From: a candidate division WWE3 bacterium
Lineage (GTDB): Bacteria > Patescibacteriota > WWE3 > JAPLWK01
DNA length: 64,000 nt
Reading direction: 5' to 3'
NCBI GenBank assembly: GCA_026396615.1
Contig: JAPLWK010000010.1
Span: 133,916 to 197,915 of the forward strand
The notes under the pieces are model-generated. The model made no database searches. It saw only the letters and a list, made by a program, of their open reading frames with translations, and was not told where the DNA came from. Position 1 is the first letter of the stretch. Every line of letters starts with the position of its first letter. Positions 27,362 through 43,616 of the stretch are shown one piece after another. The position numbers were made by a program, and so were the translations under genes.

Positions 27362-29068
27362 TTACCAACTCCCACCACCGCCGCCTCCGCCTCCGCCTCC
27401 ACCACTAAAACCACCACCGCCAGAGAATCCGCCGCCTCCGAAACCACTGCTAAAGCCGGAACTGCTGCGAGTGCTGGTGTAAGGGGCGGCTGAAAATCCG
27501 GTCGTGGCCCTATCAAACGAATTTAAAGTATTCGCAAGTATTAGTGCATTGAACAATTGACCACTGCTGTCGCCGTACCAAGTCACGTCAGTTGGAATTG
27601 ACAGGTCTTTAAAGCGACTGGCCCACTCGCGGGTCACACCAAAAGCCACAGCGTAAGGTAGTAGTTTTTCAAAAAAGTACCAATTCTTCTCTTGAAAATT
27701 GAGCTCTTTTTCTTGAGAAACTAGAAATCTCTTTAAAGCTTCGGCCTCCTCTTTCTTCTGGGCTCCCAGAGCCGTCTTTTTTGGCATTACTCTCGAGAAA
27801 ATTAGAAGCACAATTCCCAGCGGAATGTTTATACCGGTAAATAAAATTGCACTTCCAAAACCGGCGTAAAGTTTACGTACAGTGTCGGGGTTACCAGCGA
27901 ATAGGCCTTCCGCAGTTAAGTCGCTGTATAGGCTTTTCTTGGCTTGATTAACAGTTGTGTAGAAACTGCTTTTTAAATCACTAGTTGAGACTTCCGTGTC
28001 TGTGGCAAATATTCCGTCATAGATTATAGTTTCATACGGCCGAAAAGATCCAAACCCGTTTTTAGGCTCAGTTTTTGTAAATGTAAAATCACTACCATCT
28101 TTTTTAATCGTTAAAAAACCACGAATGGCCAGCGACACTATGGTGGCCGAAATATCACGGCTATCGACTTGCTCCGAAGTTAGTAGTCCCGTTTCCGCCG
28201 GCCTCAAAGGCTCACCGTCAATATGCTTTGGAGGATCGAACAGGACCCGAGGAGCGCCAAGAACTTTAGGATCCCTTCCAAATAAAAACCAGGCGATGCC
28301 GACCAGAATCGGCACTAAAATGTACCAGAGGGCAAAGAGAATTGGTAGTATTGGTGACGATGTGACATTGTTATTGTTTGTTTGACTGGTGGTTCCGAGT
28401 GGCGTTGGGGCGAGCGGTGTCACTAAACCAGTTGGAAAGCCGAAAACAACAGTTAAACCTTCATAAGTGTTAAGCGATTGGGTTGTTGTAAAATTGGCGC
28501 CGTCAGAGGTAGTTAAAGTCGTGCAGTTTTTAGCGGTTGACTTAGTGGTTCCGGTATAACATGTGGCATTAAGATTACTGGAAGTGGTGGGCAGTGTCAC
28601 CGTGACTGAAGCGTTTTGGATTGGGACTTGCCAGGCGTTACCAACGGGACTCCAGTAAAGCTCGTCGTGGTCACTAAAGTTTTGAATAGCTCCCGATAAA
28701 GTGTAATTAATTTGATATTGCTGGATTCCAGTCAGCGTTATATTGGGGTCGCCGATCTTCAAGTAAATCTGATCACTGCTGCTTTGATCGCTGTACGACG
28801 CTCCCGAAACTGAAATGTTTGACGCTGTCACTAAGTAATTACTTCCATCTTGATTAGTGATTTTTAACGGGATATTCCTAAAAATACCATGCTTGGGAGT
28901 TGTACCTAGGTCATAAATGATATCTTCGGTTACATTAATTGTCCCGTTACTTTGAATGGCCCAGTCAGCATGGAATGAATTAATGTTTTCAGCGGCCCTG
29001 GCTTTAGTGACTACTAAGATTGGAAGAATAAGACTTGCGACGATGATTGAAAGTATTAGACGTTTCAT
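27362..29068 (-). CDS. DUF2207-family membrane protein with Gly-rich C-terminal tail
   Basis: Signal peptide, large extracytoplasmic domain, TM helices, and a terminal …GFGGGGFSGGGGFSGGGGGGGGGGGSW tail characteristic of DUF2207. Confidence 0.6.
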   Translation of the reverse strand: MKRLILSIIVASLILPILVVTKARAAENINSFHADWAIQSNGTINVTEDIIYDLGTTPKHGIFRNIPLKITNQDGSNYLVTASNISVSGASYSDQSSSDQIYLKIGDPNITLTGIQQYQINYTLSGAIQNFSDHDELYWSPVGNAWQVPIQNASVTVTLPTTSSNLNATCYTGTTKSTAKNCTTLTTSDGANFTTTQSLNTYEGLTVVFGFPTGLVTPLAPTPLGTTSQTNNNNVTSSPILPILFALWYILVPILVGIAWFLFGRDPKVLGAPRVLFDPPKHIDGEPLRPAETGLLTSEQVDSRDISATIVSLAIRGFLTIKKDGSDFTFTKTEPKNGFGSFRPYETIIYDGIFATDTEVSTSDLKSSFYTTVNQAKKSLYSDLTAEGLFAGNPDTVRKLYAGFGSAILFTGINIPLGIVLLIFSRVMPKKTALGAQKKEEAEALKRFLVSQEKELNFQEKNWYFFEKLLPYAVAFGVTREWASRFKDLSIPTDVTWYGDSSGQLFNALILANTLNSFDRATTGFSAAPYTSTRSSSGFSSGFGGGGFSGGGGFSGGGGGGGGGGGSW

Positions 29069-30327: not shown

Positions 30328-31476
30328 ATGGAACCGCTGGCTTTTAAAATTCGTCCTAAAAATTTAAGTGAGTTTGTAGGTCAATCGCATCTGGTTGGCG
30401 AGGGCAAACCGTTACGCGTTGCCATCGCTAATAAACATTTATTTTCTTTTGTACTTTGGGGTCCTCCGGGGGTGGGGAAGACGACTCTGGCTAAGATTTA
30501 CGCCGGAGAAATGGGGGCCAGTCTTTCGGAGTTGTCGGCCGTCTCGGCCGGTAAAGATGATATTCGTAAAATTATCAAAAGTGACGGTCAGAACAAGCCA
30601 AAAGTGCTTTTTTTGGATGAGATTCACCGTTTTAATAAAGCCCAACAGGACTTTCTGCTTCCCTATGTTGAAAGAGGTGAGTTAACACTCATTGGGGCGA
30701 CTACGGAAAATCCCAGTTTTGAAATTATTCCGGCTTTGCTTTCTCGCTGTCGTGTCTTTGTTCTAAACGAACTTAGTAACGATGAAGTGTCACAGATCAT
30801 TGATCGCACGGAGGTAAAACTTCCGACGGACGCCCGGGACTGGTTAATTGGAATGGCTAATGGTGACGCCAGACAGGCGATTACCATGATTGAAAATACT
30901 CTTAAACTTTACGGATCGATCACAGTCGACAACTTGAAGAACACGCTGCAGTCAAAGTTTTTGCGTTTCGATAAGCAAGGCGAAGAACATTACAACACAA
31001 TCAGCTCATATATTAAGAGTATGAGAGCCTCTAATGTTGATGCAGCCTTATACTACCTGGCTAGAATGGTAGATGCAGGGGAAGATCCTTTGTTTATTGC
31101 CAGACGAATGGTGGTGTTTGCTTCGGAAGACATTGGAATGGCCAATGCCTCTGCACTAGGAGTGGCTAATGCAGTCTTTAGAGCTTGTGAGACCATTGGC
31201 TACCCTGAATGCCAAGAAAACCTCGCCCACGGAACTGTGTATCTAGCCAGGGCTCCCAAGGACAGGTCAGCCTACGAAGCCTATATGAAGGCTCTAGGCG
31301 ATGTTAAGCAGTATGGAAATTTGCCAATACCCCTTAATCTAAGGAATGCACCCACAAAGCTTATGAAAGAGATAGGTTATGGGCAAGGTTATAAACCATA
31401 CACAGATGAAAGTTTGTTGCCTGACACATTAAAGGGCAGAAAGTATTATGAAGATATTAAACCAAGAGATAAATAG
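30328..31476 (+). CDS. rarA: Recombination factor RarA/MgsA (AAA+); 3' end supplied by the integrated element
   Basis: Walker A GPPGVGKTT, Walker B LFLDEIHRF, MgsA C-terminal domain. The nucleotide composition changes at about 31012, where the element-borne 3' end begins. Confidence 0.8.
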   Translation: MEPLAFKIRPKNLSEFVGQSHLVGEGKPLRVAIANKHLFSFVLWGPPGVGKTTLAKIYAGEMGASLSELSAVSAGKDDIRKIIKSDGQNKPKVLFLDEIHRFNKAQQDFLLPYVERGELTLIGATTENPSFEIIPALLSRCRVFVLNELSNDEVSQIIDRTEVKLPTDARDWLIGMANGDARQAITMIENTLKLYGSITVDNLKNTLQSKFLRFDKQGEEHYNTISSYIKSMRASNVDAALYYLARMVDAGEDPLFIARRMVVFASEDIGMANASALGVANAVFRACETIGYPECQENLAHGTVYLARAPKDRSAYEAYMKALGDVKQYGNLPIPLNLRNAPTKLMKEIGYGQGYKPYTDESLLPDTLKGRKYYEDIKPRDK

Positions 31477-32719
31477 CATTAGTTTTGATGATGTAGTAGC
31501 CAGTTGTCAGGAAAAACAGCCTGAGGGGATAGAACTGGACTACAAGAAAGATTTTCCAGATAAAGACTTATCAAGGCTTATTGCAGCCTTTTCTAACACC
31601 CGTGGTGGTTTAATTATCATTGGTGTTACTGAAGATAAGCAAACTGGTTTTCCATCATCTTGGGATGGTATATCCGATGACGCTGGGCTTATTGAGAAAA
31701 CTAACCAACTTGCCTTAGCTGTATCACCACTTCCAGATTTTAAGGTTAGGAAAACAGACGAAAAGAATGGTAAAGTTTTCATCCTTATTAAGGTTTACGA
31801 GGGGGATGCCACGCCGTACTTTGTTAAGAATGACTCGAATGTGTGGACGAGAACAGGAAATATCAGAAATCTTGTGGATATAGCGTCTCCTGAATGGCTT
31901 GATTTGCTTTATAGAAAGAGAGATAGGTCTGAGAAAGCCAGAAGGAATTACATTACTATTGCAGATGAGGTTTTTAAGCACGGACTAGCACTAGAGGAAA
32001 AGCTAAGAATTCGCCTGGTCGAAGAGGCTAAACTAAAAGGCGATGGTAGCGAAAATAACTATTATCTGAAGAAGCTAGGCACAGATACGGAGATTTTTAC
32101 AATTACAATACTTCCTAATTATCCTAGAAGTGCCAAAGTGACACCCAGGGACATATTAGAGAATGCAAACATATTTCGTTGTACTACTGATTTCACTGAG
32201 TTTCCTAAACAAAACCTAAGACCAATCCCTGATGGTGTTATGGCAACCAGCCACTCATTTCGTGGAGATATCGGATGTAATCAGATATATGCCACCGGAC
32301 TTTTGTACAACTGCTTTGATGTGTTGGCACAAAATAGAGAAACAGGAAAGTCAGTGATTTATATTTCGCACATTATTGGAGGGTTATTTACTACTCTAAA
32401 ATCTGCCAAGCTTTTTTACAACTACATTGGGTACCAAGGCGTATTAAAGATAAATTTAACTCTTAATCTAAATTCGAAGGACGTCAATTTCTATCGTCTT
32501 ACAGGGAACGATCCATTCCATTGGAATGCGGAGGAGCAAGCTTTGCTACCAAACTATACTTGGGAATTTACCTTAAATACAGCTGAATTAAATGATATTA
32601 ACGAGGCTTTTGGTAAGTTTTTCGAGATGGTGGATGAAATTCACTGGAACCTAGGATTTAAGACTGTTTCTGTTGAATTAGTTAAAGACTTTATGAAGAA
32701 AAATAGGTTAGTATTTTAA
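31448..32719 (+). CDS. AlbA_2/Schlafen-like putative DNA-binding domain protein
   Basis: The N-terminal …ELDYKKDFPD…LSRLIAAFSNTRGGLIIIGVTED…YEGDATPYFV…RTGN… pattern fits AlbA_2. The C-terminal ~250 aa are unknown. Confidence 0.5.
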   Translation: MKILNQEINSISFDDVVASCQEKQPEGIELDYKKDFPDKDLSRLIAAFSNTRGGLIIIGVTEDKQTGFPSSWDGISDDAGLIEKTNQLALAVSPLPDFKVRKTDEKNGKVFILIKVYEGDATPYFVKNDSNVWTRTGNIRNLVDIASPEWLDLLYRKRDRSEKARRNYITIADEVFKHGLALEEKLRIRLVEEAKLKGDGSENNYYLKKLGTDTEIFTITILPNYPRSAKVTPRDILENANIFRCTTDFTEFPKQNLRPIPDGVMATSHSFRGDIGCNQIYATGLLYNCFDVLAQNRETGKSVIYISHIIGGLFTTLKSAKLFYNYIGYQGVLKINLTLNLNSKDVNFYRLTGNDPFHWNAEEQALLPNYTWEFTLNTAELNDINEAFGKFFEMVDEIHWNLGFKTVSVELVKDFMKKNRLVF

Positions 32720-32802
32720 TCTTCCTTGCATAAATCCCTAGCCTTTAGGTTATAAATAAAACGACAAGGAGAAGCTACAAGCTTTTTATCTGTTAGTAGG
32801 AC

Positions 32803-33258
32803 TTAGGTCTTAGGAGAGTTTCGCCAATCAGCGATTAATTTCAACAGGAAGTTGCCTATTATAGGTGCTAATTCTTTTGTCTCGTCATAAGTTGGCTCTT
32901 CTTGCTTTAGGTTCCAAAGTACCCATAAACCTATTGTAGTGGCTACCATTTCCTCTTTCCCTTTATTCTTGTTCGTAAAAGAAATGAAGTCGTCAATTGC
33001 TCTAGGAATGTCTTTGTTAATTTCTGATGCTCTGCCTAGTACTTTTTCGTGCTCTCCTTTGTAGGTTTCGTCAGAAGTTAAAACAAGTCCTGAACCAGCT
33101 GCTGTCATAAAGAAATCCCAGTCATCAGCAGGACGTTTGCTTTTACTTTTATTTAGAATGTCCTTCAATATTGGGTATTTATCTATTAAAGGAACCAACA
33201 ACGTAATTGAGGAGACATGGATTGCGTCAACAATAGATACTATTTCTTCACCTGACAT
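32803..33258 (-). CDS. Hypothetical protein (element cargo)
   Basis: 151 aa, no recognisable domain. Confidence 0.35.
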   Translation of the reverse strand: MSGEEIVSIVDAIHVSSITLLVPLIDKYPILKDILNKSKSKRPADDWDFFMTAAGSGLVLTSDETYKGEHEKVLGRASEINKDIPRAIDDFISFTNKNKGKEEMVATTIGLWVLWNLKQEEPTYDETKELAPIIGNFLLKLIADWRNSPKT

Positions 33259-33412
33259 ACTAAAATGATACTTTTCTTAGTTAAACTTGTAAACCCTTAA
33301 CTTTAGAAGGTTATCAGTTGGGGGGGAGCTTTACTGTTATGTTTGGGACCCGAGTCCCAAACTTACCACCTGCTAGTGTTAAATCTGGCAAATAGACATG
33401 CTGGTTTACCCT

Positions 33413-33631
33413 TTACAGGGTGGAGAAGAACTCAGATAAAGTCACACCCAAACCTTTGGACACTTTTTCTATATTTTTCAAGGAAATGTTTTTCTCACCA
33501 CGTTCTACTGCTCCTATGTAGGTGTAGTGCAAGTGTGATCTATCCGCTAAACCCTCTTGTGTTAAGCCTTTTAGCTTCCTAAGTTGCTTAATTCTATTTC
33601 CAAATCTGTCTAGTATTTTACTTACAGGCAT
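33413..33631 (-). CDS. XRE-family HTH transcriptional regulator (Cro/CI-like)
   Basis: 72 aa. HTH …LKGLTQEGLADRSHLHYTYIGAVERGEKNISLKNIEKVSKGL… Divergent from the next gene across an AT-rich switch region. Confidence 0.7.
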   Translation of the reverse strand: MPVSKILDRFGNRIKQLRKLKGLTQEGLADRSHLHYTYIGAVERGEKNISLKNIEKVSKGLGVTLSEFFSTL

Positions 33632-33751
33632 ATAAAAATGATTGCTATTACAATTAAAGGTTATTTGGATAATGCCAATGTATCCAGAGTCGAAGAATAG
33701 TAATTATGTTATAATGTGGTTATAGGTAAGCATTTCGTAGTTTAGATACAT

Positions 33752-34837
33752 ATGAAACTTGTTGAGAGGTTAAAAACTGATAGAAAGTTTTTACTGGCTG
33801 TTATCTGTGTCTTTTTAGCAATCTTACTTATCCCCTATTTAACGCTACCCTGTTTAGTTATCTGGTGGTTTTATAAGAAATCAAAAATATCAAAAAGAAC
33901 AAAGATCATTACTACAGCTGGTTTTGGCTGTATTTTCGCACTACTGGGGGCCTGGATGTCTATATCCTACTCAAAGGATGCAGAACCTCACCTACAATTA
34001 TTAAGCCCTGCCTTAATTTCTACTGTTCAAGCAGACAAAGTTGTTATTAAGGGTACTTACGAGCCAGCTGATAGGAAGATTTGGATAAACGACACTGAAG
34101 TAACAGCATCTAATGGGAGCTTTGAATATACCTATCCCCTAAAAATGGGAGAAAACAAGGTTGAAGTTAAAGCTGGTGATTGGAAAAGAGCCTCAGTTAG
34201 TCTAGTAATTACCAGAGAGATTTCAGCCGAGGAAAAAACACGACAGGAGGCAACTAATAGAAAAGTGACAGAAGAAGCTACAAAGTCCACTGTTGCACCA
34301 ACACCAAAACCTACGCCATCAGCGAGTCCCACTGTTGCCACACCCAAAGCAAGTCCAGAGCCTACAAAAACACTCACCCCAGTAGTAACTCATTCTTCCA
34401 TTATGGATCAGCTTTGGACTGCACTTGATGATTCTATTAAAACCAGAAAAGGCTACGATATTCAGTATGAAGATATAGATAAAAGGGTCACAGTTACTCA
34501 AACAGGCAGTACTTTTTGGGATGAAACAGGTACTGTGCGGGGTGGTTACTCAACCTTAGTTGCATATGGATCTAAAGCCTTCAAAATATCTGGGGTTGAT
34601 GTCGTAAAGGTAGTTATTAGGGGTGAATTCACTGATACTTATGGGAAAGATAGTACAGAGGATGCTATGCGTATATCTATGGCAAAAACAGAGTTTGATA
34701 AATATGATTGGGGCAATCTAATATACCAGCCTATTTATACGCAAATGGAGAACTCCACAATTGAGTATTACATTCATCCTGCAATTTTGAAAAATGTTAA
34801 GTTAAAAGACCTTTATCTTTCGCCTTTAGTCTCCTAA
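33752..34837 (+). CDS. Membrane-anchored protein with Pro/Thr-rich linker
   Basis: Two N-terminal TM helices, a Big-like segment, and a PTPKPTPSASPTVATPKASPEPT linker. Confidence 0.4.
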   Translation: MKLVERLKTDRKFLLAVICVFLAILLIPYLTLPCLVIWWFYKKSKISKRTKIITTAGFGCIFALLGAWMSISYSKDAEPHLQLLSPALISTVQADKVVIKGTYEPADRKIWINDTEVTASNGSFEYTYPLKMGENKVEVKAGDWKRASVSLVITREISAEEKTRQEATNRKVTEEATKSTVAPTPKPTPSASPTVATPKASPEPTKTLTPVVTHSSIMDQLWTALDDSIKTRKGYDIQYEDIDKRVTVTQTGSTFWDETGTVRGGYSTLVAYGSKAFKISGVDVVKVVIRGEFTDTYGKDSTEDAMRISMAKTEFDKYDWGNLIYQPIYTQMENSTIEYYIHPAILKNVKLKDLYLSPLVS

Positions 34838-34978
34838 ACAGCACTTTTCGTGGGAAGCATTAGCATTAGCCTAGAGGTAATAGGCCCATTGTTGGGAACA
34901 AAGAGTTAAGAAAGCACAACGTAGAAATAAAAACTTTAAATGATGAAATAACAAAGAAAAAAAAGAGGTGATAATTAA

Positions 34979-35602
34979 ATGAAAAAATTACTAAAATGGG
35001 GTGTAATTGCAATAGGGGGATTTTTTGTACTGTGCTTAATTGTTGGTTTAACTACAGGAGACAAGAAGGGTGCCAGTACTAATAACGCCCTTCAAAAGGG
35101 AATGGAACAAGCCAAACAAACCCTTGAGAGCAGTGAAACTCCAGTGCAAGAAACTAGTCAAGCAAAGCAAGTCGCTAATACTAGTGGTACTGTGGCACAA
35201 CAAATAGAAGCAAAAGTGCGAGCATCCATATCAGGTAGTAATAAATTCAAGGACGTTCAAGTAACAGATTTCACTAAACTTGGTGAGGGTTACAACGTGT
35301 TTGTAACAATCAACGTTGACGATAACTTAACAACTGGCTTCATTTCCAAAGGGATTTGGCAAGATATGTCTAATATTTATACAGCTTTGTATAAAGTGCC
35401 AATGAACATAGATACAGTCATAATTTTTGCTGATATGAACACTGTTGATAAATATGGGAAAACGAATAACGAAACTGTGATGAAAACTAGATTGACTAAA
35501 GCTGAGGCGCAAAAAGTGAATTGGAATTATGCTCCCAAATCAACACTTGATTTGCAAATATTACCCAATGTTTGGGAAACTGTTCTTGACATGTTTAAGT
35601 AA
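34979..35602 (+). CDS. Secreted protein
   Basis: Signal/TM segment MKKLLKWGVIAIGGFFVLCLIVGL. Preceded by AAGAGGTG. Confidence 0.4.
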   Translation: MKKLLKWGVIAIGGFFVLCLIVGLTTGDKKGASTNNALQKGMEQAKQTLESSETPVQETSQAKQVANTSGTVAQQIEAKVRASISGSNKFKDVQVTDFTKLGEGYNVFVTINVDDNLTTGFISKGIWQDMSNIYTALYKVPMNIDTVIIFADMNTVDKYGKTNNETVMKTRLTKAEAQKVNWNYAPKSTLDLQILPNVWETVLDMFK

Positions 35603-35914
35603 GCTAATCCACTAACAAAAGCCTCCTGAATAAGGGGGCTTTTCTGTTGTCTAAGTAGTTCAGTAGGCGCTGGTTAGGTATAAGAAACTGTAGTTAGTTA
35701 TAAATTCATCACTTAATAACAAAAACGAATCTCTACGAGTGCTACAGAGGCTTCTAGGCATAGTCTAGTAGTTCAAATTTCTAAAAATAGCAGGGGTATA
35801 TCGCCTAGAGGATCCTTAGGGCAAAGTGTAGAGAAATGCTGTAACGACAACTAATTGTGTACATAGGGAATGATACAAATTATAATCAAATAATTATAAA
35901 TATTGTAAATTAGT

Positions 35915-36295
35915 ATGAATTCGATAAGCACGATAGGACACTCTAACTATAGTCTTACGTTTTTCGTTGAAGCGCTTGTAAAATACGATATTGAGGTGCT
36001 TATAGACGTACGTTCTATTCCTTACTCCAAAAGAAACCCTCAGTTTAATCGAGAGAGTTTGGCTGCAGTGCTTCCCAATCATAAAATTACATATCTCTTT
36101 AGAGGCCACAATTTAGGTGGACTATATGAGAACGTTAATTTTATTGAAACAATTGATGAATTGCTTAAACTTTCCGAAGACAGAAAGGTTGTTCTGATGT
36201 GCAGTGAAGGCGACTACCACAAGTGCCACAGGTACCTGATTTTAACTCCAGCACTAGAAGCCAAAGGAGTAAAAGTCAAACACATTACACCGTAA
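35915..36295 (+). CDS. DUF488-family protein
   Basis: …ISTIGHSNYS…LIDVRSIPYSKRNPQFNRESL…GHNLGG… matches the DUF488 signature. Confidence 0.5.
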   Translation: MNSISTIGHSNYSLTFFVEALVKYDIEVLIDVRSIPYSKRNPQFNRESLAAVLPNHKITYLFRGHNLGGLYENVNFIETIDELLKLSEDRKVVLMCSEGDYHKCHRYLILTPALEAKGVKVKHITP

Positions 36296-36332
36296 GAATA
36301 AGTAAGTATAATTAAGACATTAAAAATGCATT

Positions 36333-37226
36333 ATGAAAAAGATAATTCCAGTTCTTGAGGATTCGAAGCCAAAGAGTTTTGGCAATAACAATGACCCTTA
36401 CACTTTCTTGGCAGAGTTTTGCGAATTAAATACAGAAAGTTGGCAGAAGATTGAGAATTTCTCAAAAAGATGGGATGTTTATATTGACGTAGTTGCTAAA
36501 TATACCCCAAAACAACGTGATATTAAAGAAAGATTCTCACAGGCTAAGGAAAAATATGAGTCGTTAATCAATAAGGTTAGAGGTTTAGACTATACGTATG
36601 CCAACTATTCAGAGTTGGAAGAACTAAATAAAGATTTATCAGAAATTAAAGTTGCTGTTATATCAGAAAATCCTGGATTTGGTAAATTGTTTAACTACCT
36701 GCCAGTCTTTTGTAACTCGGACACTCTCGAAACCCGTTTTACCAGTATAGAAATTCTAGGACACCCTGAAATATCTCCTAAGGCTGCCAAAATAAAAATT
36801 CTAATTGAACCTACAAATCAAAGGAATTGGGTGCCCATACGAAAAAAACTAGACAGCAAACTCGTTAAGGATATATTGACACAAATAAATTATCCACTAG
36901 ACGAAAAGTTTTTGCATCAGTGGGTAGTTGCGTCTACGAAATTGATTGGCCCTCGCATTCGCTACGAAGCTACTCTTAAACTAGGAGAGCCGAGTGAACT
37001 TCTTGTATACGCACCAAATACTCTTAGAGGAATGCATACATCAGGATGTGGCATCGAAAGTATAGTTGCTCAAAATATATGGCGTGTTTTATTTGGTAAA
37101 AACGACAAAATAAGATTATGCCGAGTTTGTGGTAGACCTGCGTCCCGACCTAACAGTAAAACCTGCAAACAAGCTATCTGTAGGAATAGGTTCAGGAGTT
37201 TAAGAAATAGGAAAATTTACGTGTAG
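36333..37226 (+). CDS. Hypothetical protein with basic Cys-rich C-terminus
   Basis: Ends in …LCRVCGRPASRPNSKTCKQAICRNRFRSLRNRK (zinc-ribbon-like). Confidence 0.4.
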   Translation: MKKIIPVLEDSKPKSFGNNNDPYTFLAEFCELNTESWQKIENFSKRWDVYIDVVAKYTPKQRDIKERFSQAKEKYESLINKVRGLDYTYANYSELEELNKDLSEIKVAVISENPGFGKLFNYLPVFCNSDTLETRFTSIEILGHPEISPKAAKIKILIEPTNQRNWVPIRKKLDSKLVKDILTQINYPLDEKFLHQWVVASTKLIGPRIRYEATLKLGEPSELLVYAPNTLRGMHTSGCGIESIVAQNIWRVLFGKNDKIRLCRVCGRPASRPNSKTCKQAICRNRFRSLRNRKIYV

Positions 37227-37280
37227 GGTTTCGTGACAGATTTTCGTATTCAAAAATTGATTTCGTAAGATGTTTGCATA

Positions 37281-37604
37281 ATGAAAGATGCAAACAGATT
37301 TACAACAAAAGACCTCCATCTCTCCGCATTTTTAGTCGTATCCTTTTTAAAAGTTATAGAGATTGTCCCCGATAATTTATCGGGTGAGTCTTGGTTTATA
37401 TTTGAAGATTGCGATAAATGCAACGCTTTGGAGAAGAACTACTGGAGTCAGATAGCACAAGTTGAGCCAATCGCATACATAAATGCAATTAAGACATTAA
37501 AGCAACGGATACTGCGTTACAACGCTAGTCCGAGCATTCGGGGGGGTCTGAGGAAACGAACGACGACGGGGCAACGGCGAAGCAAACTGGGAATTAATTT
37601 ATAA
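37281..37604 (+). CDS. Hypothetical protein
   Basis: 107 aa with an Arg-rich tail. Weak coding call. Confidence 0.3.
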   Translation: MKDANRFTTKDLHLSAFLVVSFLKVIEIVPDNLSGESWFIFEDCDKCNALEKNYWSQIAQVEPIAYINAIKTLKQRILRYNASPSIRGGLRKRTTTGQRRSKLGINL

Positions 37605-38203
37605 CAAAAATAAGTGGAACGAGGGGTGTAGGTTAAAAGCTCTTAACCCTCGAAACCCTGCGGAGGCTAAGGCATCCTCAGGAGAGATAGAGCGAAGGGT
37701 ACGCAGAGGTAAAAACTGATAAACGTATCCACTGAAAATCCCTTGGGGGGTTTGGGGGGCCAATGAGAAAATACGATCGCCTCAGGAGGCTCAGCTCGCT
37801 CTGGGAATAAATATATGACTTCATTTAATAAATTTTTAACTATGGAGGTTACGAAAATATCAATTGGTAAAGATAAGCTTATTTATTTTACAGTTAAGCA
37901 CCCCGTGTCAACAAACTGGCCAAGCTTTACTTTCAAATGGCAGGATATCGAGAAGAATGAGCAACTTAAAAACATTTTTGACTCACTAATAAAATATGAA
38001 ATCTAAAATGAAAAAGAATATCAAAATTGTAGTTTCATCGAATCTAAACAATCTGACGCCAAGGCAGAAAAGTAATGCGCGTAAAGCAGTTGGTATTTTT
38101 ATGTCAAAAGTGTTAAATAACGTTGCTGTGACAACATAAACCCTTGCATTAGGGGGTAAAAAAGTTAGAATAAAAGTATACAAAACAAAAACCAGAGACA
38201 CCC

Positions 38204-39949
38204 TTGCGAGATGAAGCTCTGGTTTTGAACACGGTAAGTGTTATGAATTATTGTACTACACCAAACCCTATTTCTAAAGATTTTGTAGAAGTGATTTCGG
38301 AGTTAGAGTCTTCACGCTTAAATGACCCCCTATTTCTAGAAAGCCTTAGCCAACCCTACTCATTGAGAGTTGCTATTTACTTAAGGGTATCCACAAAAGA
38401 CCAGGCTACAGAAGATAAAGTATCCCTAGATATTCAGGAGTCTGAATGTAATTCATATCTTAAACAATTTAGTAGTTACGTAATTGCGGGAACGTACTGC
38501 GATGGTGGAAAAAGTGGTGGGACTATGGTGGGCAGGGATGAGTTTAACAAAATGATAGCTGACGCTAAAGCGGGAAATATAGATGTTCTGCTCGCTTGGA
38601 GTACCGACAGGTTAGCAAGAAATGTAGATGAAATGACGCAACTTAGGGCAGAACTAAGAAAAATAAACGTTCAGGTTACGACTACCAAAGAGCCTGCCGA
38701 AATTATTGACCCCCGCAAACTTACGTTGGAAGGCAATGAAACAATGCAAAAAATACTAGCTTACGTTCAAGATTGGAGTGCTGAGTGTGATAAACGAAAA
38801 ATATCGGAGAGGTTTAGGATTGGGAAAATCGGAAAGGCCGAAAAAGGATTGATACCAGTCAAAACACCTTACGGGTTTAGAAAGTCAGTCAAATACATAA
38901 ATAACGACCCGAAGCAGAAAATTGAGGAAGATGTAACGGTACCAGATGAGATTTGTGTGGTGAAAGATATTTTTAACTATTACGACACCAACTCGTGGGG
39001 AATACGAAAAATTGTTGATGAACTTAATCTTAAAGGCATTAAATCACCAAAAGGAGGAATCTGGTGTTATTCTAGCGTTAAATACACTCTGCAAAATCCT
39101 ACTTACTGTGGGTTGGTTAGGTACGGCTGGCGACTAAGTAAGAGCAAAATTAGTAGAGCAAGGTTACAACAGGGCCATAAAGGAATTATTGTTAAAGGAA
39201 AGCACCAAGCTGTCATTAACCCCGAGCAGTTTAAGCGAGTGCAAGATAAACTTAAACGCAGAGCAGAACTAGGAGGTAAAGCCGTACACTCCAAAGGTTT
39301 ATTAACTGGGATCCTTAAATGTGGCAGGTGTGGTGGAAGTGCCTATTTATGCAGTTATCACCATTGGCTAGCGTACGAAAAAAATAAGAAGGACAGAACC
39401 AAGTACACGAAAGGTTCTGCCTATATGTGTGGCAATTATTCCCAGCACGGAAAGACAGTCTGCAGCCAAAGGTATATATTATCTCAAGGTAAAATTGAAG
39501 AAGCAGTAGTTAAGCAAATACGCGAGTTAGCCAACAGTAAGGAAACGCAAGAGGAGTTTATTAAGCAAATGAAGAAAAATAGGGTTAAAGATATTAAGCA
39601 GGAACTGGTAATGCTAAACAAAACGAAGGAGGATTTACTAATACGTAAGGATAGACTAAAGGCTGCGTATTTGGCTGGCACAATTCAACTAGAAGAGTAC
39701 GAACAAGATAGGAGGAAGCTGGAAGAAAGAATTAAAAATCTGGAAAACAAGTGTGCAGAAACTCAGGAGGAGCTTTTAAGGGAGGCGGACGCCGAAAGAC
39801 ACTCTAGGGACGCCATTTTAGCTCTTGCCAATTTTGACGAGATCTGGGAAAAGTCCGAATTTATGCACAAAAAAGAGCTCCTGCAGACTCTCCTCGAAAA
39901 GGTAACTATCGTAGGTGGTGTGGTGAACATCAGTTTCAGAAATTGTTAA
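38204..39949 (+). CDS. Large serine recombinase (integrase)
   Basis: Resolvase catalytic domain (…AIYLRVSTKDQ…LLAWSTDRLARN…), recombinase domain, zinc ribbon (CGRCGG…C…C) and C-terminal coiled-coil. 581 aa. Confidence 0.8.
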   Translation: MRDEALVLNTVSVMNYCTTPNPISKDFVEVISELESSRLNDPLFLESLSQPYSLRVAIYLRVSTKDQATEDKVSLDIQESECNSYLKQFSSYVIAGTYCDGGKSGGTMVGRDEFNKMIADAKAGNIDVLLAWSTDRLARNVDEMTQLRAELRKINVQVTTTKEPAEIIDPRKLTLEGNETMQKILAYVQDWSAECDKRKISERFRIGKIGKAEKGLIPVKTPYGFRKSVKYINNDPKQKIEEDVTVPDEICVVKDIFNYYDTNSWGIRKIVDELNLKGIKSPKGGIWCYSSVKYTLQNPTYCGLVRYGWRLSKSKISRARLQQGHKGIIVKGKHQAVINPEQFKRVQDKLKRRAELGGKAVHSKGLLTGILKCGRCGGSAYLCSYHHWLAYEKNKKDRTKYTKGSAYMCGNYSQHGKTVCSQRYILSQGKIEEAVVKQIRELANSKETQEEFIKQMKKNRVKDIKQELVMLNKTKEDLLIRKDRLKAAYLAGTIQLEEYEQDRRKLEERIKNLENKCAETQEELLREADAERHSRDAILALANFDEIWEKSEFMHKKELLQTLLEKVTIVGGVVNISFRNC

Positions 39950-40095
39950 AAAATATAGCAGACTAGAGGCTTATTAATTTATCTTCTTAAATCCCAATAT
40001 AAGCATATAAATAACCTTCAAACAGTAGTCAATTTAGCTAGTAGAAAGTCTAATATGAGCAGATACTCAACACCATTAGTGCTTTCATTAAAAGT

Positions 40096-40539
40096 ATGCG
40101 GGCCAGTCAACCGGACGCGGCTCTTTACTATCTCGCTCGCATGATTGATGCCGGGGAGGACCCGCTCTTCATTGCGCGGCGCATGGTCGTTTTTGCTTCG
40201 GAAGATATCGGAATGGCTAATTCGGCCGCTTTAAGTGTCGCCAACGCTGTCTTTAGGGCTTGCGAAGTTATTGGCTACCCGGAATGTCGCGAAAATCTAG
40301 CGCACGGTGTGGTTTATTTGTCATGCGCCACTAAAGATCGAGGTGCCTATGATGCTTATATGAAAGCTCTTGTGGACGTTAAAGAATTTGGTAATTTGCC
40401 AATTCCGCTGTCCGTTCGCAACGCCCCCACGCAGCTAATGAAAGATCTGGATTACGGCAAAGGCTACCAAGCTTATACTAATAAGTCGTATTTGCCGGAA
40501 AAAATAAACGATCGTCACTACTACCAAAAACCTGTTTAA
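40096..40539 (+). pseudogene. rarA: Displaced original 3' end of rarA (remnant, attR side)
   Basis: The 147 aa align residue-for-residue with the rarA C-terminus (MRAS…DAALYYLARM…DAGEDPLFIARRMVVFASEDIGMAN…). There is no 5' part. Confidence 0.7.
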
Positions 40540-41267
40540 GCGCCACGAGTGAGGTAAATAATTCCAATTCCAAGTAGAAATAATAAAAATGAAGAGACAA
40601 TATTAAGACGTGAATTATCGGTTCTAACTTCCGGGATTAAGTCTGCCGCGGCAATGTAAATAAAACCACCGGCAGCAATTGGTAAAAGATACGCAATGAT
40701 TAATGGTGACGACTGACCTAAAAAGTAGCCGCAAATTCCCCCTAAAATTGCGATCATAGAAATCCCAAAATTAGCAAGAACGGCTTTTTTACGGCCGAAG
40801 CCGGCGTGTAAAAATACTCCCACATCACCAATTTCTTTGGGAATTTCGTGAAAAATGACGGCGGTACTAATAGTGACGCCAAGGGCCGGACTTGTTATAA
40901 AAGCGGCGGCCACAATTAAGCCATCTATAAAATTGTGAACCGCTTCGCCAATTAGATTTAGAGTGCCAAAATGCTTATGGGCATCTTCCGCTTCGTTGCA
41001 GTGATGCCAGTGCAGGACTTTCTCCAGGAGTAAAAAACAGACGAATGACGCTAGAGTAACTTCAAACAAGGTCGTCACGGGAAGTCTGGCCGCCCCCTCT
41101 GGTAGCAGATCCAAAAAAGCTCCACCCATTAAAGTTCCGGCGGCTAAAGAAACTAACGAGAGTAATATTTTTGAGAGGATTTTTTGATTTATAACTAGCG
41201 TCAGCGCTCCCAGTAAGGACCCAAAACCAACGATTGATAAAGCGATAATAATATAGAAGAGTGTCAC
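40536..41267 (-). CDS. ZIP-family metal transporter (ZupT-like)
   Basis: HNFIDGLIVAAAF and HEIPKEIGDVGVFLHAGF motifs. 8 TM helices. Confidence 0.7.
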   Translation of the reverse strand: MTLFYIIIALSIVGFGSLLGALTLVINQKILSKILLSLVSLAAGTLMGGAFLDLLPEGAARLPVTTLFEVTLASFVCFLLLEKVLHWHHCNEAEDAHKHFGTLNLIGEAVHNFIDGLIVAAAFITSPALGVTISTAVIFHEIPKEIGDVGVFLHAGFGRKKAVLANFGISMIAILGGICGYFLGQSSPLIIAYLLPIAAGGFIYIAAADLIPEVRTDNSRLNIVSSFLLFLLGIGIIYLTRGA

Positions 41268-41970: not shown

Positions 41971-42045
41971 TGGCTGGGGAGCTTGGAGTCGAACCAAGAA
42001 TACCCACCTCCAAAGGGTGGTGTCCTACCATTAGACGACTCCCCA
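41971..42045 (-). tRNA. tRNA-Gln (anticodon UUG)
   Basis: Reverse complement is TGGGGAGTCGTCTAATGGTAGGACACCACCCTTTGGAGGTGG…CTTGGTTCGACTCCAAGCTCCCCAGCCA. Anticodon loop CTTTGGA. Confidence 0.8.
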
Positions 42046-42125: not shown

Positions 42126-42386
42126 ATGAATCAACGTCTTAGTTTACCGGTTTCGGTAATTTCTATTTTCGATCATAAGACGCGTTTAGTAAAGCCGTTG
42201 CGGGTTTTATTTGAGGGTAGGGCTTATGAAATCGTAAAAATTGGTTATCACCACACCTACCGAACAGGCCGCGTCCTTTACCATATCTTCTCTGTCGCCA
42301 GCGATAATTTATTCTTTAGATTAAATTTAGATACCGAAAGTCTTTTTTGGACTTTGGAGGAAGTGAGCGATGGAGAATCCAATTAA
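42126..42386 (+). CDS. Hypothetical protein co-transcribed with dinB
   Basis: 86 aa. Overlaps the dinB start by 17 nt. Unknown family. Confidence 0.4.
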   Translation: MNQRLSLPVSVISIFDHKTRLVKPLRVLFEGRAYEIVKIGYHHTYRTGRVLYHIFSVASDNLFFRLNLDTESLFWTLEEVSDGESN

Positions 42387-43616
42387 TTTGCCTTTTAATC
42401 CAAATGATCCCACGATATTACATCTGGATTTAAATTCCTGTTTTGCTTCTATTGAGCAGCAGGCCAACCCTTTATTACGCGGTCGTCCGGTGGCTGTAGC
42501 CGCCTATGTGTCGCCGCGTGGCTGTATCCTCGCCGCTTCTTATGAAGCAAAAAAACTGGGGGTAAAAACCGGAATGCGCGTTCAGGACGGCAAAATGCTC
42601 TGCAAAGATTTAGTGGTACTGCCGCCGGACGCCAATAAATATCGGGCTGTCCATTTAAAGATGCGGCAGCTTTTAAACTCTTACACTAATTTAGTGACCC
42701 CAAAGTCAATCGATGAGTTTGTATTAGATTTGGCCGGATCACCATCTTTAAAGCTGGGAATGGCGGAGACGGCTTTGAATATTAAACGTCGTATTAAAGA
42801 GGAAGTAGGGGATTACTTGCGGGTTTCTGTTGGAATTGCTCCCAATCGGTATTTGGCTAAAGTGGCTTCTTCCTACCAAAAGCCCGACGGTTTAACGGTT
42901 ATAAACAACTCTAACTATGCCGCCATTTACGATTCCCTTAAGCTTACTGATTTATGCGGTATTAAAGAGGCGAATGCGGCCAGACTTAACGAAGGTGGTG
43001 TGTATACCGTCACCCAAATGTATGCAGCTTCCGCGGCGACTCTAAAGTTAGCCTTTCATTCTGTTTGCGGCTACCAGTGGTATTTGCGTCTGCATGGCTA
43101 CGAAATTGATGACGTTCTTTTTGCCCGTAGTAGTTACGGCAACTCTTATGCGCTTCCCGATAAGCGGGACTGTCGCGGGTGCTCCTCAAGTTAGTTGAAA
43201 AGACGGGCTCTCGGATGCGATCTGCCGGTTATAAAGCGCGAGGTGTTCACGTTGGTCTTTTATATAGAGATGGCAGTTATTGGCACCACGGTCAAGTAAC
43301 GCACTCTTTGCTTTTTGATTCTCGCGATATTTACAAGGAAGCTCTTCATATTTTACGGCATTCGCCTTGCGTAAAAGCGGTCCATAATTTAGCGGTATCC
43401 TGTTTTAATCTAGAAAAAGAAACCAATCAGCAATTATCACTAGTTGAAAATTTGGATCGTAAAGAACGGCTGGTCTCAGCGATGGATGCGATTAATAAAC
43501 GCTACGGTAGCTTTGTGATTACTCCGGCTTTGATGCTGGGAACCGAAAAAAACGTTCCCGACCGGGTGGCGTTTGGTGGGATCAAAGAGTTAGAGGAGGT
43601 ATTAATTGATCGTTGA
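42370..43616 (+). pseudogene. dinB: DNA polymerase IV (Y-family) split by a -1 frameshift near 43165-43180
   Basis: ORF 42370-43194 carries palm/fingers/thumb (…ILHLDLNSCFASIEQQ…). ORF 43179-43616 (GTG start) carries the little-finger domain. Together they reach ~415 aa. Confidence 0.65.

Follow-up and report, generated by a model that had tools for sequence, protein, structure and literature searches.

A probable serine-recombinase island in the rarA gene of a WWE3 bacterium that carries its own rarA 3' end

The rarA gene in the stretch of candidate division WWE3 DNA analysed here (64,000 nucleotides, hereafter the window) very probably houses a site-specific integrative genomic island, inserted by a large serine recombinase (LSR) and carrying a replacement for the 3' end of the gene. 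The original prediction, of an integrative element that targets rarA and supplies its own 3' replacement, is supported by the recombinase, by a palindromic attP and by the recurrence of such islands at one and the same codon. Indeed, islands occupy this rarA codon in at least seven other Patescibacteria-type genomes, with nine element lineages in all, and they form a recurring, previously undescribed family of an otherwise familiar kind. Between its junctions the island of the window extends over some 9,073-9,075 bp (9.1 kb) and has a GC content of 38.1%, all other 9-kb segments of the 64 kb being higher, at 41.4-46.0%. The features on which its delimitation depends are the following.

30328-31476, + strand: rarA, whole gene, 382 aa (Pfam AAA, AAA_assoc_2, MgsA_C, E 1e-50)
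30328-30993, + strand: host-derived rarA 5' part, codons 1-222, AAA+ ATPase core and lid (Pfam AAA, AAA_assoc_2)
30970-31020, + strand: attL, comprising B arm, centre and P' arm (sequence read directly, symmetry analysis, junction alignment across loci)
30994-31476, + strand: element-borne replacement rarA 3' end, MgsA_C domain, ~160 codons (ISS[YLF] signature, GC3)
31004-31015, + strand: attL P' arm motif GCTCATATATTA, within codons S-S-Y-I-K
38243-39949, + strand: LSR, intact, 568 aa from ATG (Pfam Resolvase PF00239, Recombinase PF07508, Zn_ribbon_recom PF13408)
40040-40095, + strand: attR, comprising P arm, centre and B' arm (sequence read directly; P arm conserved in relatives)
40051-40060, + strand: attR P arm motif TAATATGAGC
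40069-40539, + strand: displaced native rarA 3' end, 5'-less (ISAFIKS motif, host-5'-tracking divergence, GC3, ORF layout)

The ~160 terminal codons of rarA are present twice (30988-31476 and 40063-40539), the left copy being joined in frame to the host 5' part. That the two copies differ clearly in their DNA, as was predicted, is borne out by a nucleotide identity of 66% over 140 ungapped codons, with differences of 35/14/92 by codon position, mostly therefore at third positions. The encoded proteins, on the other hand, are not near-identical as had been claimed; 106 of 140 residues agree in the window (76%), and identity lies at 76-80% across the comparisons made. The right copy occupies an open frame at 40054-40539, preceded by a stop codon at 40051-53, and within it a 147-aa ORF still runs from the ATG at 40096.

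The presence of an LSR beside the right rarA copy is confirmed by its three Pfam domains and by invariant catalytic residues. The longest ORF is of 581 aa, from TTG 38204 to 39949, and the start is taken as ATG 38243, on which the alignment of the family and the 568-aa NCBI record agree; the protein is a 100% match to an NCBI WWE3 protein. It lies upstream of the right copy, with 114 nt between them. The catalytic residues R61/S63 and the zinc-ribbon cysteines C373/C376/C409/C420 are invariant in an alignment of 40 family sequences, and the enzyme matches the PHROG 95 integrase at E 2e-104. Its relatives are 34-62% identical to it, while the family is < 33% identical to any named protein, CcrB being among the closest of these outside the family (30% identity, 71% of query, E 1e-32).

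The two copies also allow the ends of the island to be placed. Homology begins at a shared hexamer, CAACAC (30993-30998 on the left, 40068-40073 on the right), and not at ATTAARAGTATG (31012 / 40087) as was at first proposed, the true start being 19 nt further upstream. Across the junctions the left peptide is HYNTISSYIKSMRAS and the right one ILNTISAFIKSMRAS, and the B arm of attL is the terminal stretch of the rarA 5' part. These 6 bp are all that attL and attR have in common; so short a core, without long direct repeats, is in keeping with serine recombination, for which a brief stretch of identity is enough. Within the hexamer, the proposed crossover dinucleotide is AA (30994-30995 left, 40069-40070 right), which opens Asn codon 223. 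A central AA is invariant in 17 tabulated junctions, and in locus L176 (related loci carry L numbers, the element of the window being W) it is GA at both junctions, with a host codon GAC; AA and GA are both non-palindromic, as befits the core of an LSR att site.

When attP is rebuilt from the left of attR and the right of attL, a palindromic arrangement TAATATGAGC-8-AA-8-GCTCATATATTA is obtained. Of 31 candidate centres in each of six elements tested, symmetry is best at the junction dinucleotide in five (W, L081, L083, L171 and L176; 13-14 of 22 positions), a maximum that shuffled sequence reaches with a probability of 0.005-0.06 per site. Ahead of the rarA fragment, W, L081 and L083 keep the P arm motif (C/T)AAT(T/A)ATGAGC, and L171 and L176 have variant forms of it. 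No symmetry in the junction register was found for L093, which belongs to a distant LSR subgroup (L093, L095 and L089; ~35% identical) in which the P arm differs. The converse reconstruction, of attB from the left of attL and the right of attR, encodes GEEHYNTISAFIKS, that is the canonical rarA motif HYNTISAFIKS, the ISAF form of which occurs in 81 of 100 rarA copies examined. Rebuilt attB sites have little symmetry in five of six loci, L171 being the exception (12 of 22 at the same centre), and the attB segment is more conserved than 92% of rarA. What is seen at the locus is thus what is expected of an LSR integrative element, namely the recombinase domains, a short non-palindromic core, an imperfect attP repeat of ~50 bp and an attB that is the uninterrupted target.

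The comparison with genomes lacking the insert that had been suggested could be made with 78 other genomes, in which rarA is uninterrupted and neither a second copy nor an LSR lies within 10 kb; the rebuilt attB matches the common ISAF form. Neither an empty site nor a circular form of attP turned up for the host itself or for any close relative; the best-matching RarA from any source is 77% identical, and exact-protein look-ups of neighbouring genes gave no match.

In occupied genomes, every relative of the LSR on a sufficiently long contig has the same layout of rarA, cargo, LSR and rarA 3' fragment, and the fragment always starts at RarA residue ~219-224. The sequences of L081/L172/L173, L083, L093, L095, L171 and L176 include both junctions, those of L082, L085, L089, L090, L096, L097, L100, L174/L175 and L177 one. 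The L171 island is syntenic with that of the window gene for gene, with proteins 23-60% identical, and the native fragment of its host reads ISALHKSVRGS. Clear decay is seen in at least one relative, L095/L096. Some relatives have in addition a stand-alone MgsA_C protein, which is highly diverged.

Taken together, these arrangements suggest a mechanism in which the LSR would recombine a pseudo-palindromic attP of ~50 bp with an attB inside rarA. On the circular form, attP would have the recombinase gene on one side and the rarA 3' segment of the island on the other, its P' side being the beginning of the island-borne copy of the last ~160 rarA codons. Crossover would fall within Asn codon 223 (HY-N-TISAFIKS), at its first two bases, ~10 codons ahead of MgsA_C. 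Since the P' side lies within the island's rarA copy, integration would place the MgsA_C domain of the island in frame behind the 5' two-thirds of the host gene, such that the outcome would be a full-length chimeric RarA, with the native 3' third left promoter-less behind attR. Excision would need the same recombinase together with a directionality factor, and would restore the native gene. The exact crossover dinucleotide, the directionality factor, present-day mobility and the route of transfer from cell to cell are parts of this scheme that we infer.

Besides the LSR, the island contains the following genes.

31448-32719, + strand: SLFN/AlbA_2-domain protein, 423 aa, cargo (Pfam PF04326, E 4e-12)
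32803-33258, - strand: 151-aa protein, cargo (ORF; no family match in Pfam or PHROGs)
33413-33631, - strand: XRE-type HTH regulator, 72 aa (Pfam HTH_3, E 4e-16; divergent from the next gene)
33752-34837, + strand: membrane-anchored Glucodextran_B (Ig-like) protein, 361 aa, cargo (Pfam PF09136, E 4e-7)
34979-35602, + strand: 207-aa protein with N-terminal hydrophobic segment, cargo (ORF; PHROG 8263, of unknown function, E 1e-10)
35915-36295, + strand: DUF488 protein, 126 aa, backbone (Pfam PF04343, E 8e-18)
36333-37226, + strand: 297-aa protein with Cys-rich C-terminus, backbone (no family match in Pfam, PHROGs or PADLOC)
37281-37604, + strand: DUF5659 protein, 107 aa, backbone (Pfam PF18903)
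37815-38006, + strand: 63-aa protein between DUF5659 and the LSR, backbone (homologues at the same position in L171, 49%, and L180, 42%)

The predicted cargo (SLFN_AlbA_2, XRE, DUF488 and membrane or secreted proteins, with no capsid or terminase) is found as described, with Glucodextran_B and DUF5659 to be added. The XRE regulator had further been placed in a divergent switch; it does face a divergently transcribed gene, but nothing indicates a switch of the lysis/lysogeny type, and its match to PADLOC models of restriction-modification 'control protein' is at E 2e-24. Across the family a backbone emerges, made up of the XRE regulator (homologues in seven related loci), DUF488 (conserved in L171, L180, L172 and L083; E 3e-31 to the PADLOC candidate defence family PDC-M45B), a protein of ~300 aa (same position in L171, 23% identical, and L180, 32%), DUF5659, a protein of ~63 aa and the LSR. 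DUF5659 always stands just upstream of the recombinase, with synteny conserved in at least six loci; its AF2 model (pLDDT 80) has no fold match in the PDB, and the protein may be a regulator or a directionality factor. The 63-aa protein gave no informative sequence or fold match. Indeed, no directionality factor and no replication or transfer function was identified in the element by Pfam, PHROGs, PADLOC or fold match. The remainder of each island is variable and often defence-like, with restriction-modification systems, a methylase, PIN and SNF2/PLD proteins elsewhere in the family. In the window, the start of the SLFN/AlbA_2 gene overlaps the end of the element's rarA copy, and a homologue 60% identical is found at the same position in L171; homologues of the Glucodextran_B protein are found in L171 and L093.

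The XRE regulator opposite a divergent gene, the small size of the elements (9-15 kb) and the PHROG 95 'integrase' match of the LSR would also suit an integrated virus in degraded or unconventional form, or a phage satellite, for instance inovirus-like or helper-dependent, that uses the LSR as its integrase and has virion genes for transfer that are unrecognised or provided in trans. Two membrane or secreted proteins without explanation and a hypothetical protein that matches a PHROG of unknown function point the same way, and inoviruses have been reported from Candidate Phyla Radiation genomes (PMC6813254). Such an origin is nevertheless improbable, as no capsid, portal, terminase or tail gene is matched in any ORF, the ten main ones included, and the element's ORFs contain no Zot/pI-type ATPase nor any other P-loop ATPase (Pfam, PHROGs). 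Moreover, the LSR family is absent from IMG/VR, where the best viral LSR is 26% identical, the conserved backbone of the relatives has no virion-like gene, and cargo elsewhere in the family is of the restriction-modification, methylase, PIN and SNF2/PLD kind. A tailed prophage is rejected on the missing structural genes and the absence from IMG/VR, and an inovirus-like element on the missing morphogenesis ATPase. An integrative conjugative element is likewise rejected, there being no Pfam match to a relaxase, a coupling protein or type IV secretion in the element of the window; conjugation genes are also absent from the Pfam listings of the L171, L172, L174 and L176 loci.

There is, in addition, the matter of which rarA copy is foreign. 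The motif ISS[YLF][IL]K..SN(V/I/P)DA is limited to the left copies of occupied loci, the L100 fragment and L002/L021. Left copies are 73-80% identical to the left copy of the window, whereas host parts are 48-59% identical where measurable; right copies, by contrast, drop to ~60% where host 5' parts drop to 48-50% (L081, L171), and the right copy of the window carries the host-type motif ISAFIKS. In L171 the two copies within the locus are 60% identical, against 78% between its left copy and that of the window. Because the left copy has ISS[YLF] and the right diverges in step with the host 5' part, the left copy is shown, judging from sequence, to be the imported one and the right copy the native one. 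It is therefore scarcely credible that the order is reversed, with the element lying downstream of an intact native rarA and the right fragment coming from a previous host, by imprecise excision for example. The left copy does complete a normal-looking gene, the window alone is silent on which copy is native, and differences in GC3 are modest; yet the GC3 of the left copy (0.395) fits a low-GC island, that of the right (0.480) is closer to the rarA 5' part (0.446), and the stop of the right copy overlaps by 4 nt a convergent host gene for a ZIP transporter (40536-41267). Right copies track host 5' divergence where left copies do not, and ISS[YLF], in left copies alone, forms the P' half of the palindrome. 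The reading of an imported left copy also bears on the notion that the rarA 3' end was duplicated locally long ago and that genes including the recombinase, not itself the cause, gathered there later. Left and right copies within a locus are often more alike than copies between loci (W 80%, L093 83%, L176 86%), and those of L093 share an indel. Such likeness points to co-evolution with the host lineage or to gene conversion; it would be expected after local duplication too, though other evidence excludes the latter. A duplication of this sort has only the slenderest probability, given a same-codon junction in nine element lineages with different cargo, a left signature shared between loci, right copies that co-vary with the host 5' part, left copies foreign to the host in L171 and L081, a single rarA in 78 genomes, and a conserved non-coding P arm before every right copy that pairs palindromically with the start of the left.

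An integrative island is thus the reading to be set beside known systems, and none of their principles is overturned by it. SCC and SCCmec of staphylococci are non-phage, non-conjugative islands with Ccr LSRs and variable cargo that keep the target in frame, the target being the last ~15 nt of rlmH (orfX), of which a few codons are replaced under a ccrA/ccrB pair. The rarA island is similar in that it is an LSR-moved, non-phage island of variable cargo in the 3' part of a housekeeping gene whose frame stays intact. It is different in entering at codon 223 of 382, in replacing a whole domain of ~160 codons, in having one recombinase gene and in its Patescibacteria host; with rarA, not rlmH, as target and an LSR only 30% identical to CcrB, it does not belong to SCC. 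Other LSR-integrated elements interrupt genes, such as A118 in comK, SPbeta in spsM, skin in sigK and Bxb1 in groEL1; their targets are split and inactivated, with function back only on excision. The enzyme class, short core, pseudo-palindromic attP and directionality factor for excision are common ground with these, but the rarA island is without virion genes, and rarA, unlike those targets, would stay functional because the element supplies the missing part. Elements with a tyrosine integrase that bring a substitute 3' end include phage 21 and e14 in icd, ICESt3 in fda and tRNA- or tmRNA-targeting islands. Both kinds enter a conserved gene, bring a replacement end and leave the displaced native 3' piece of the target at the far junction; the rarA island, however, has a serine recombinase, shares only 6 bp in place of a long identical core, replaces a much longer segment and has one attP half-site in coding sequence.

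As an integration target rarA is indeed unusual, as the original prediction had it, but a precedent exists in the bont/E cassette, found in rarA of Clostridium botulinum group II and C. butyricum by independent insertion at the same position in the two species (PMC2764570, PMC4824171). This cassette, of 24 kb, splits rarA at codon 102, contains a complete second rarA (414 aa) and is flanked by a 6-bp TTCATC repeat, with no large serine recombinase implicated (PMC2764570, PMC4824171). It is the only published bacterial cassette found that targets rarA with its own rarA sequence. In common with the island, it leaves the cell a working copy; the island is nevertheless not of its type, being inserted at codon 223, supplying only the 3' ~160 codons and forming an in-frame fusion. 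The rarA island and the botulinum type E toxin cassette together make rarA a recurrent landing site for elements that bring their own rarA sequence. There is a small chance that the imported domain does more than patch the gene, and that the islands, by exchanging the oligomerisation domain (MgsA_C) of the host RarA for one of their own and, in some relatives, by expressing the additional stand-alone MgsA_C protein, re-tune or blunt recombination and fork repair in the host to their own benefit.

Patescibacteria (Candidate Phyla Radiation) have tiny genomes and, with few exceptions, are uncultured; hardly any of their mobile elements have been characterised. Here a family of small islands is defined whose ends are exact, whose recombinase is identified and whose attP and attB can be rebuilt, offering a route by which defence-type genes (restriction-modification, PIN, SNF2/PLD, DUF488, Schlafen-like) may pass between genomes while a repair gene is spared. 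Because attB lies in a conserved part of a gene that is nearly universal, the LSR with its att pair is a candidate integration tool; there is a small chance that it is the first system of site-specific integration to be defined in Patescibacteria, and one that could serve in their genetics. Finally, a recombinase half-site within coding sequence is under a dual constraint, which imposes on the element its peptide signature, SSY for SAF.

The 3′ end of rarA is present twice in the window, as the original prediction held, in that a complete gene is followed, immediately 3′ of a stop codon at 40051-53, by a second 3′ copy which is open in frame. The principal features are as follows.

30328-31476: rarA, 382 aa, with AAA, AAA_assoc_2 and MgsA_C domains (Pfam)
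30994-31476: left copy of the rarA 3′ end, fused to the host 5′ part
38243-39949: large serine recombinase (LSR)
40054-40539: second, right copy of the rarA 3′ end, displaced (fragment from 40069)

Over 140 ungapped codons, the two copies share 76% of their residues and 66% of their nucleotides, with nucleotide differences of 35/14/92 over the three codon positions, such that the DNA is clearly different, as had been noted, while the proteins are similar and not, as was also stated, near-identical. The homology starts at CAACAC (30993-98 and 40068-73), 19 nt upstream of the ATTAARAGTATG from which it had been slightly inaccurately reckoned; the peptide across the left junction is HYNTISSYIKS and that across the right ILNTISAFIKS. 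The ca 9 kb between the copies has a GC content of 38.1%, all other 9-kb windows of the 64 kb being higher (41.4-46.0%). The recombinase that had been placed beside the second copy is indeed the last gene of this stretch and contains all three LSR domains (Pfam); its start is corrected to ATG 38243, on which the family alignment agrees with the 568-aa NCBI record (candidate division WWE3).

In what follows, attL denotes the left junction, made up of B arm, centre and P′ arm, and attR the right junction, made up of P arm, centre and B′ arm; from these the parental junction sequences can be rebuilt as GCGAAGAACATTACAACACCATTAGTGCTTTCATT for attB and GTCTAATATGAGCAGATACTCAACACAATCAGCTCATATATTAAG for attP. 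The latter joins the left part of attR to the right part of attL as GTCTAATATGAGCAGATACTC-AA-CACAATCAGCTCATATATTAAG, in which the central AA corresponds to 30994-95 and 40069-70, with the motif TAATATGAGC (40051-60) placed 8 nt to one side of this centre and its reverse complement GCTCATATATTA (31004-15) 8 nt to the other. Two-fold symmetry of the rebuilt sites was scored at 31 candidate centres in six elements with both junctions. The junction dinucleotide is the best centre of attP symmetry in five of the six (the window and the comparison contigs L081, L083, L171 and L176), with 13-14 of 22 positions symmetric, and shuffled sequence attains the observed maximum with a probability of 0.005-0.06 per site. 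By the same scoring, rebuilt attB has little symmetry in five of the six loci and is not convincing in this regard, that of L171 being symmetric at 12 of 22 positions about the same centre; the window attB encodes GEEHYNTISAFIKS, which is ordinary rarA sequence. Serine integrases need a non-palindromic central dinucleotide for polarity. The centre is AA in 17 tabulated junctions, and in L176 (a 1.2-Mb contig) it is replaced by GA as the common centre of both junctions (1266 and 11730), where the host codon is GAC (Asp, in HYD); both dinucleotides are non-palindromic. Crossover would have to fall within the common CAACAC, where symmetry points to AA, the exact position not being fixable by sequence alone. 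The crossover, at codon 223, lies some 10 codons ahead of MgsA_C (Pfam 235-376), and so the island replaces the whole domain. The nucleotide conservation of the 42-nt attB window exceeds that of 92% of rarA windows (78 genomes), at 1.40 bits compared with a gene mean of 1.15 bits, which would offer a wide choice of hosts.

The arrangement is a recurrent one. The LSR has ca 47 relatives at 36-62% identity, nearly all in Patescibacteria-type metagenome bins; outside this family, identity falls to 33% or below. Metagenome contigs were scanned with the LSR family alignment and four further relatives were looked up. Wherever the contig is long enough, the layout consists of a full rarA, 8-15 kb of cargo with the LSR, and then a rarA fragment, which in all such loci begins at RarA residue ~219-224. 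The loci with both junctions are L081/L172/L173, L083, L093, L095, L171 and L176, and those with a single one L082, L085, L089, L090, L096, L097, L100, L174/L175 and L177. Ahead of the rarA fragment, the P arm, which is non-coding, is conserved, with the consensus (C/T)AAT(T/A)ATGAGC, and an LSR subgroup at ~35% identity has a second type of P arm motif. L171 is syntenic with the window island gene for gene, at protein identities of 23-60%, the common order being SLFN_AlbA_2, HTH, Glucodextran_B protein, DUF488, ~300-aa protein, DUF5659, ~63-aa protein and LSR, with an additional DNA methylase in L171 between the LSR and attR.

Some loci depart from this layout. In L095 (~1421-1480) the attL core is deleted and rarA is frameshifted (...GEDFFK*, then SNVDAA in another frame), and the displaced right fragment (15642-16075) is also frameshifted; the same element occurs in L096, and it looks like a locked-in, decaying copy or else an assembly error. 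L100 (1-10382) has at its junction (5271) P-arm-type sequence and AA followed by an element-type (ISSY) rarA fragment in place of a host-type one, with two DNA methylases and an AlwI-like endonuclease between LSR and junction, and DUF4268 and DUF4365 genes beyond. Two islands in tandem would give this order, as would the attP of a free form, and the contig ends fall too close to tell which. In human-gut contigs of a high-GC organism (L116 10001-13594; L117 2390-5962; L127 10001-13616; L141), a full-length rarA (441 aa) is preceded, at a distance of ~0.9 kb, by a distantly related LSR (26% identity), and no rarA fragment was detected in these four; the proximity may be fortuitous or may reflect another kind of association of an LSR with rarA.

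Other accounts of the duplication are that the 3′ end of rarA was duplicated in tandem, anciently and unrelated to the recombinase, as the original prediction set against its own reading, or that the orientation is reversed, with the left copy being native. Left copies at occupied loci, however, all read ISS[YLF][IL]K...SN(V/I/P)DA, whereas right copies read ISAFIK, save for L171 (ISALHK) and the element-type fragment of L100; of 100 rarA copies examined, 81 have ISAF. The SSY codons of the left copy coincide exactly with the P′ half-site GCTCATATATT, such that the predicted recombinase-binding site constrains the protein sequence. Moreover, it is the right copies that co-vary with the host: the host 5′ parts of L081 and L171 are 48-50% identical to that of the window and their right copies ~60% identical to its right copy, while their left copies are 73-78% identical to its left copy. 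The two L171 copies are only 60% identical to each other, and the native fragment there reads ISALHKSVRGS. As to context, the right copy and the convergent host ZIP gene overlap by 4 nt at the stop of the former, and GC3 is 0.480 in the right copy, 0.395 in the left and 0.446 in the host 5′ part. Together, signature, co-variation and context exclude both the tandem duplication and the reversed orientation, and the integrative element with its own replacement for the rarA 3′ end is supported by the att reconstruction, the recurrence and the foreign left copy. In several loci the two copies are closer to each other than to those of other loci (window 80%, L093 83%, L176 86%), with an indel in common in L093, a likeness which suggests either that the association with the host lineage is an old one or that gene conversion has acted outside the att half-site.

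With respect to cargo, no ORF of the island matches capsid, portal, terminase, tail, Zot, relaxase or type IV secretion families (Pfam, PHROGs), which bears out the earlier remark on capsid and terminase genes. A prophage is accordingly rejected, the LSR family also being absent from IMG/VR (best match 26% identical), as are an ICE, for want of relaxase and type IV secretion families, and an inovirus, for want of Zot. The family backbone comprises DUF488, the ~300-aa protein, DUF5659, the ~63-aa protein, the LSR and an XRE-type HTH, to which individual islands add the following.

Window: Schlafen/AlbA_2 protein and two membrane or secreted proteins
L100: type IIS R-M system
L174: type IIG R-M enzyme and SNF2/PLD protein
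L171: methylase
L176: PIN protein and tyrosine integrase
L095: P-type ATPase and Na/Ca exchanger

DUF488 matches the PADLOC candidate defence family PDC-M45B (E 3e-31) and the HTH matches PADLOC R-M control-protein models; these are the sole PADLOC matches of the island, the SLFN/AlbA_2 protein having none. The most fitting description is that of a small genomic island, predicted to be LSR-driven and largely of the defence-island type. Candidates for a directionality factor are DUF5659 (37281-37604), the 63-aa ORF (37815-38006) and the 297-aa protein. The DUF5659 homology search returned two proteins only, its profile found no match among PDB sequences, and its AF2 model (pLDDT 80, confident) has no significant PDB fold match (best E 0.19, TM ~0.3).

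The SLFN/AlbA_2 gene, the first of the cargo, starts before the element-borne rarA copy has ended, within its final codons (window 31448-31476, L171 4924-4937), which suggests that it may be co-transcribed with the repaired rarA. Several related islands, though not that of the window, contain mid-element, beside the HTH gene, a highly diverged stand-alone MgsA_C protein of 199-215 aa (Pfam E 1e-6 to 7e-17; L082 5281-5880, L085 5880-6476, L093 4356-5003, L095 6239-6868, L174 6155-6754); they may be left over from earlier nested insertions, or else be functional proteins that interact with RarA.

For the window host, neither an empty site nor a circular form was found in the RarA search or exact-protein look-ups. 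The RarA scan of genome contigs gave 80 loci, the best 75-76% identical and none a close relative, with patterns partly derived from the left copy, which biases any comparison of left with right; no LSR or second rarA copy lies within 10 kb in the 80 species-representative genomes. The reconstructed native RarA, as query in a protein search, is matched at 77% identity at best, with no close relative bearing an empty site among the results. Look-ups of RarA, the ZIP transporter (two ways) and the SET-domain neighbour gave no alternative contigs on record. L002 (10682-14509, Patescibacteria bin) and L021 (2468-5563, Komeilibacteria bin) seemed empty, yet their rarA reads ISSL/ISSF...SNVDAA and their contigs end 3-4 kb downstream of it, so that they are probably occupied sites severed by contig ends. 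Logan contigs L178 and L179 (SRR20698641, SRR20698644) are 100% identical to island-internal parts (window 35258-38421), so that this strain or island occurs in at least two other read sets as well; the contigs stop short of either junction.

By mechanism, the closest known systems are the SCC elements, which also use an LSR, the 3′ end of a housekeeping gene and a retained frame, and are not phages; indeed, CcrB is among the nearest named proteins to the window LSR (30% identity). LSR prophages and intervening elements interrupt their target genes and, unlike the rarA island, do not repair them. Among tyrosine-integrase elements, such as those in icd, fda and tRNA genes, bringing a replacement end is a classic strategy. 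The rarA-targeted LSR islands are, therefore, a new family within an already known kind of element. The literature search yielded no paper on LSRs or Patescibacteria elements in connection with rarA, the only rarA precedent found being the bont/E cassette of botulinum, in which rarA is split at codon 102, a whole second rarA is carried and no recombinase is assigned (PMC2764570, PMC4824171).

Outside the island, the window encodes at 27362-29068 (minus strand) a 568-aa membrane protein with a long C-terminal glycine run (...GGGGFSGGGGFSGGGGGGGGGGGSW), a homologue of which (28% identical) adjoins rarA in L001. A tRNA-Gln(ttg) lies at 41971-42045, 1.4 kb beyond the displaced rarA fragment, and is followed at 42126-43194 by an 86-aa ORF overlapping the start of a 274-aa ORF, which by eye looks like a putative Y-family (DinB-like) polymerase.
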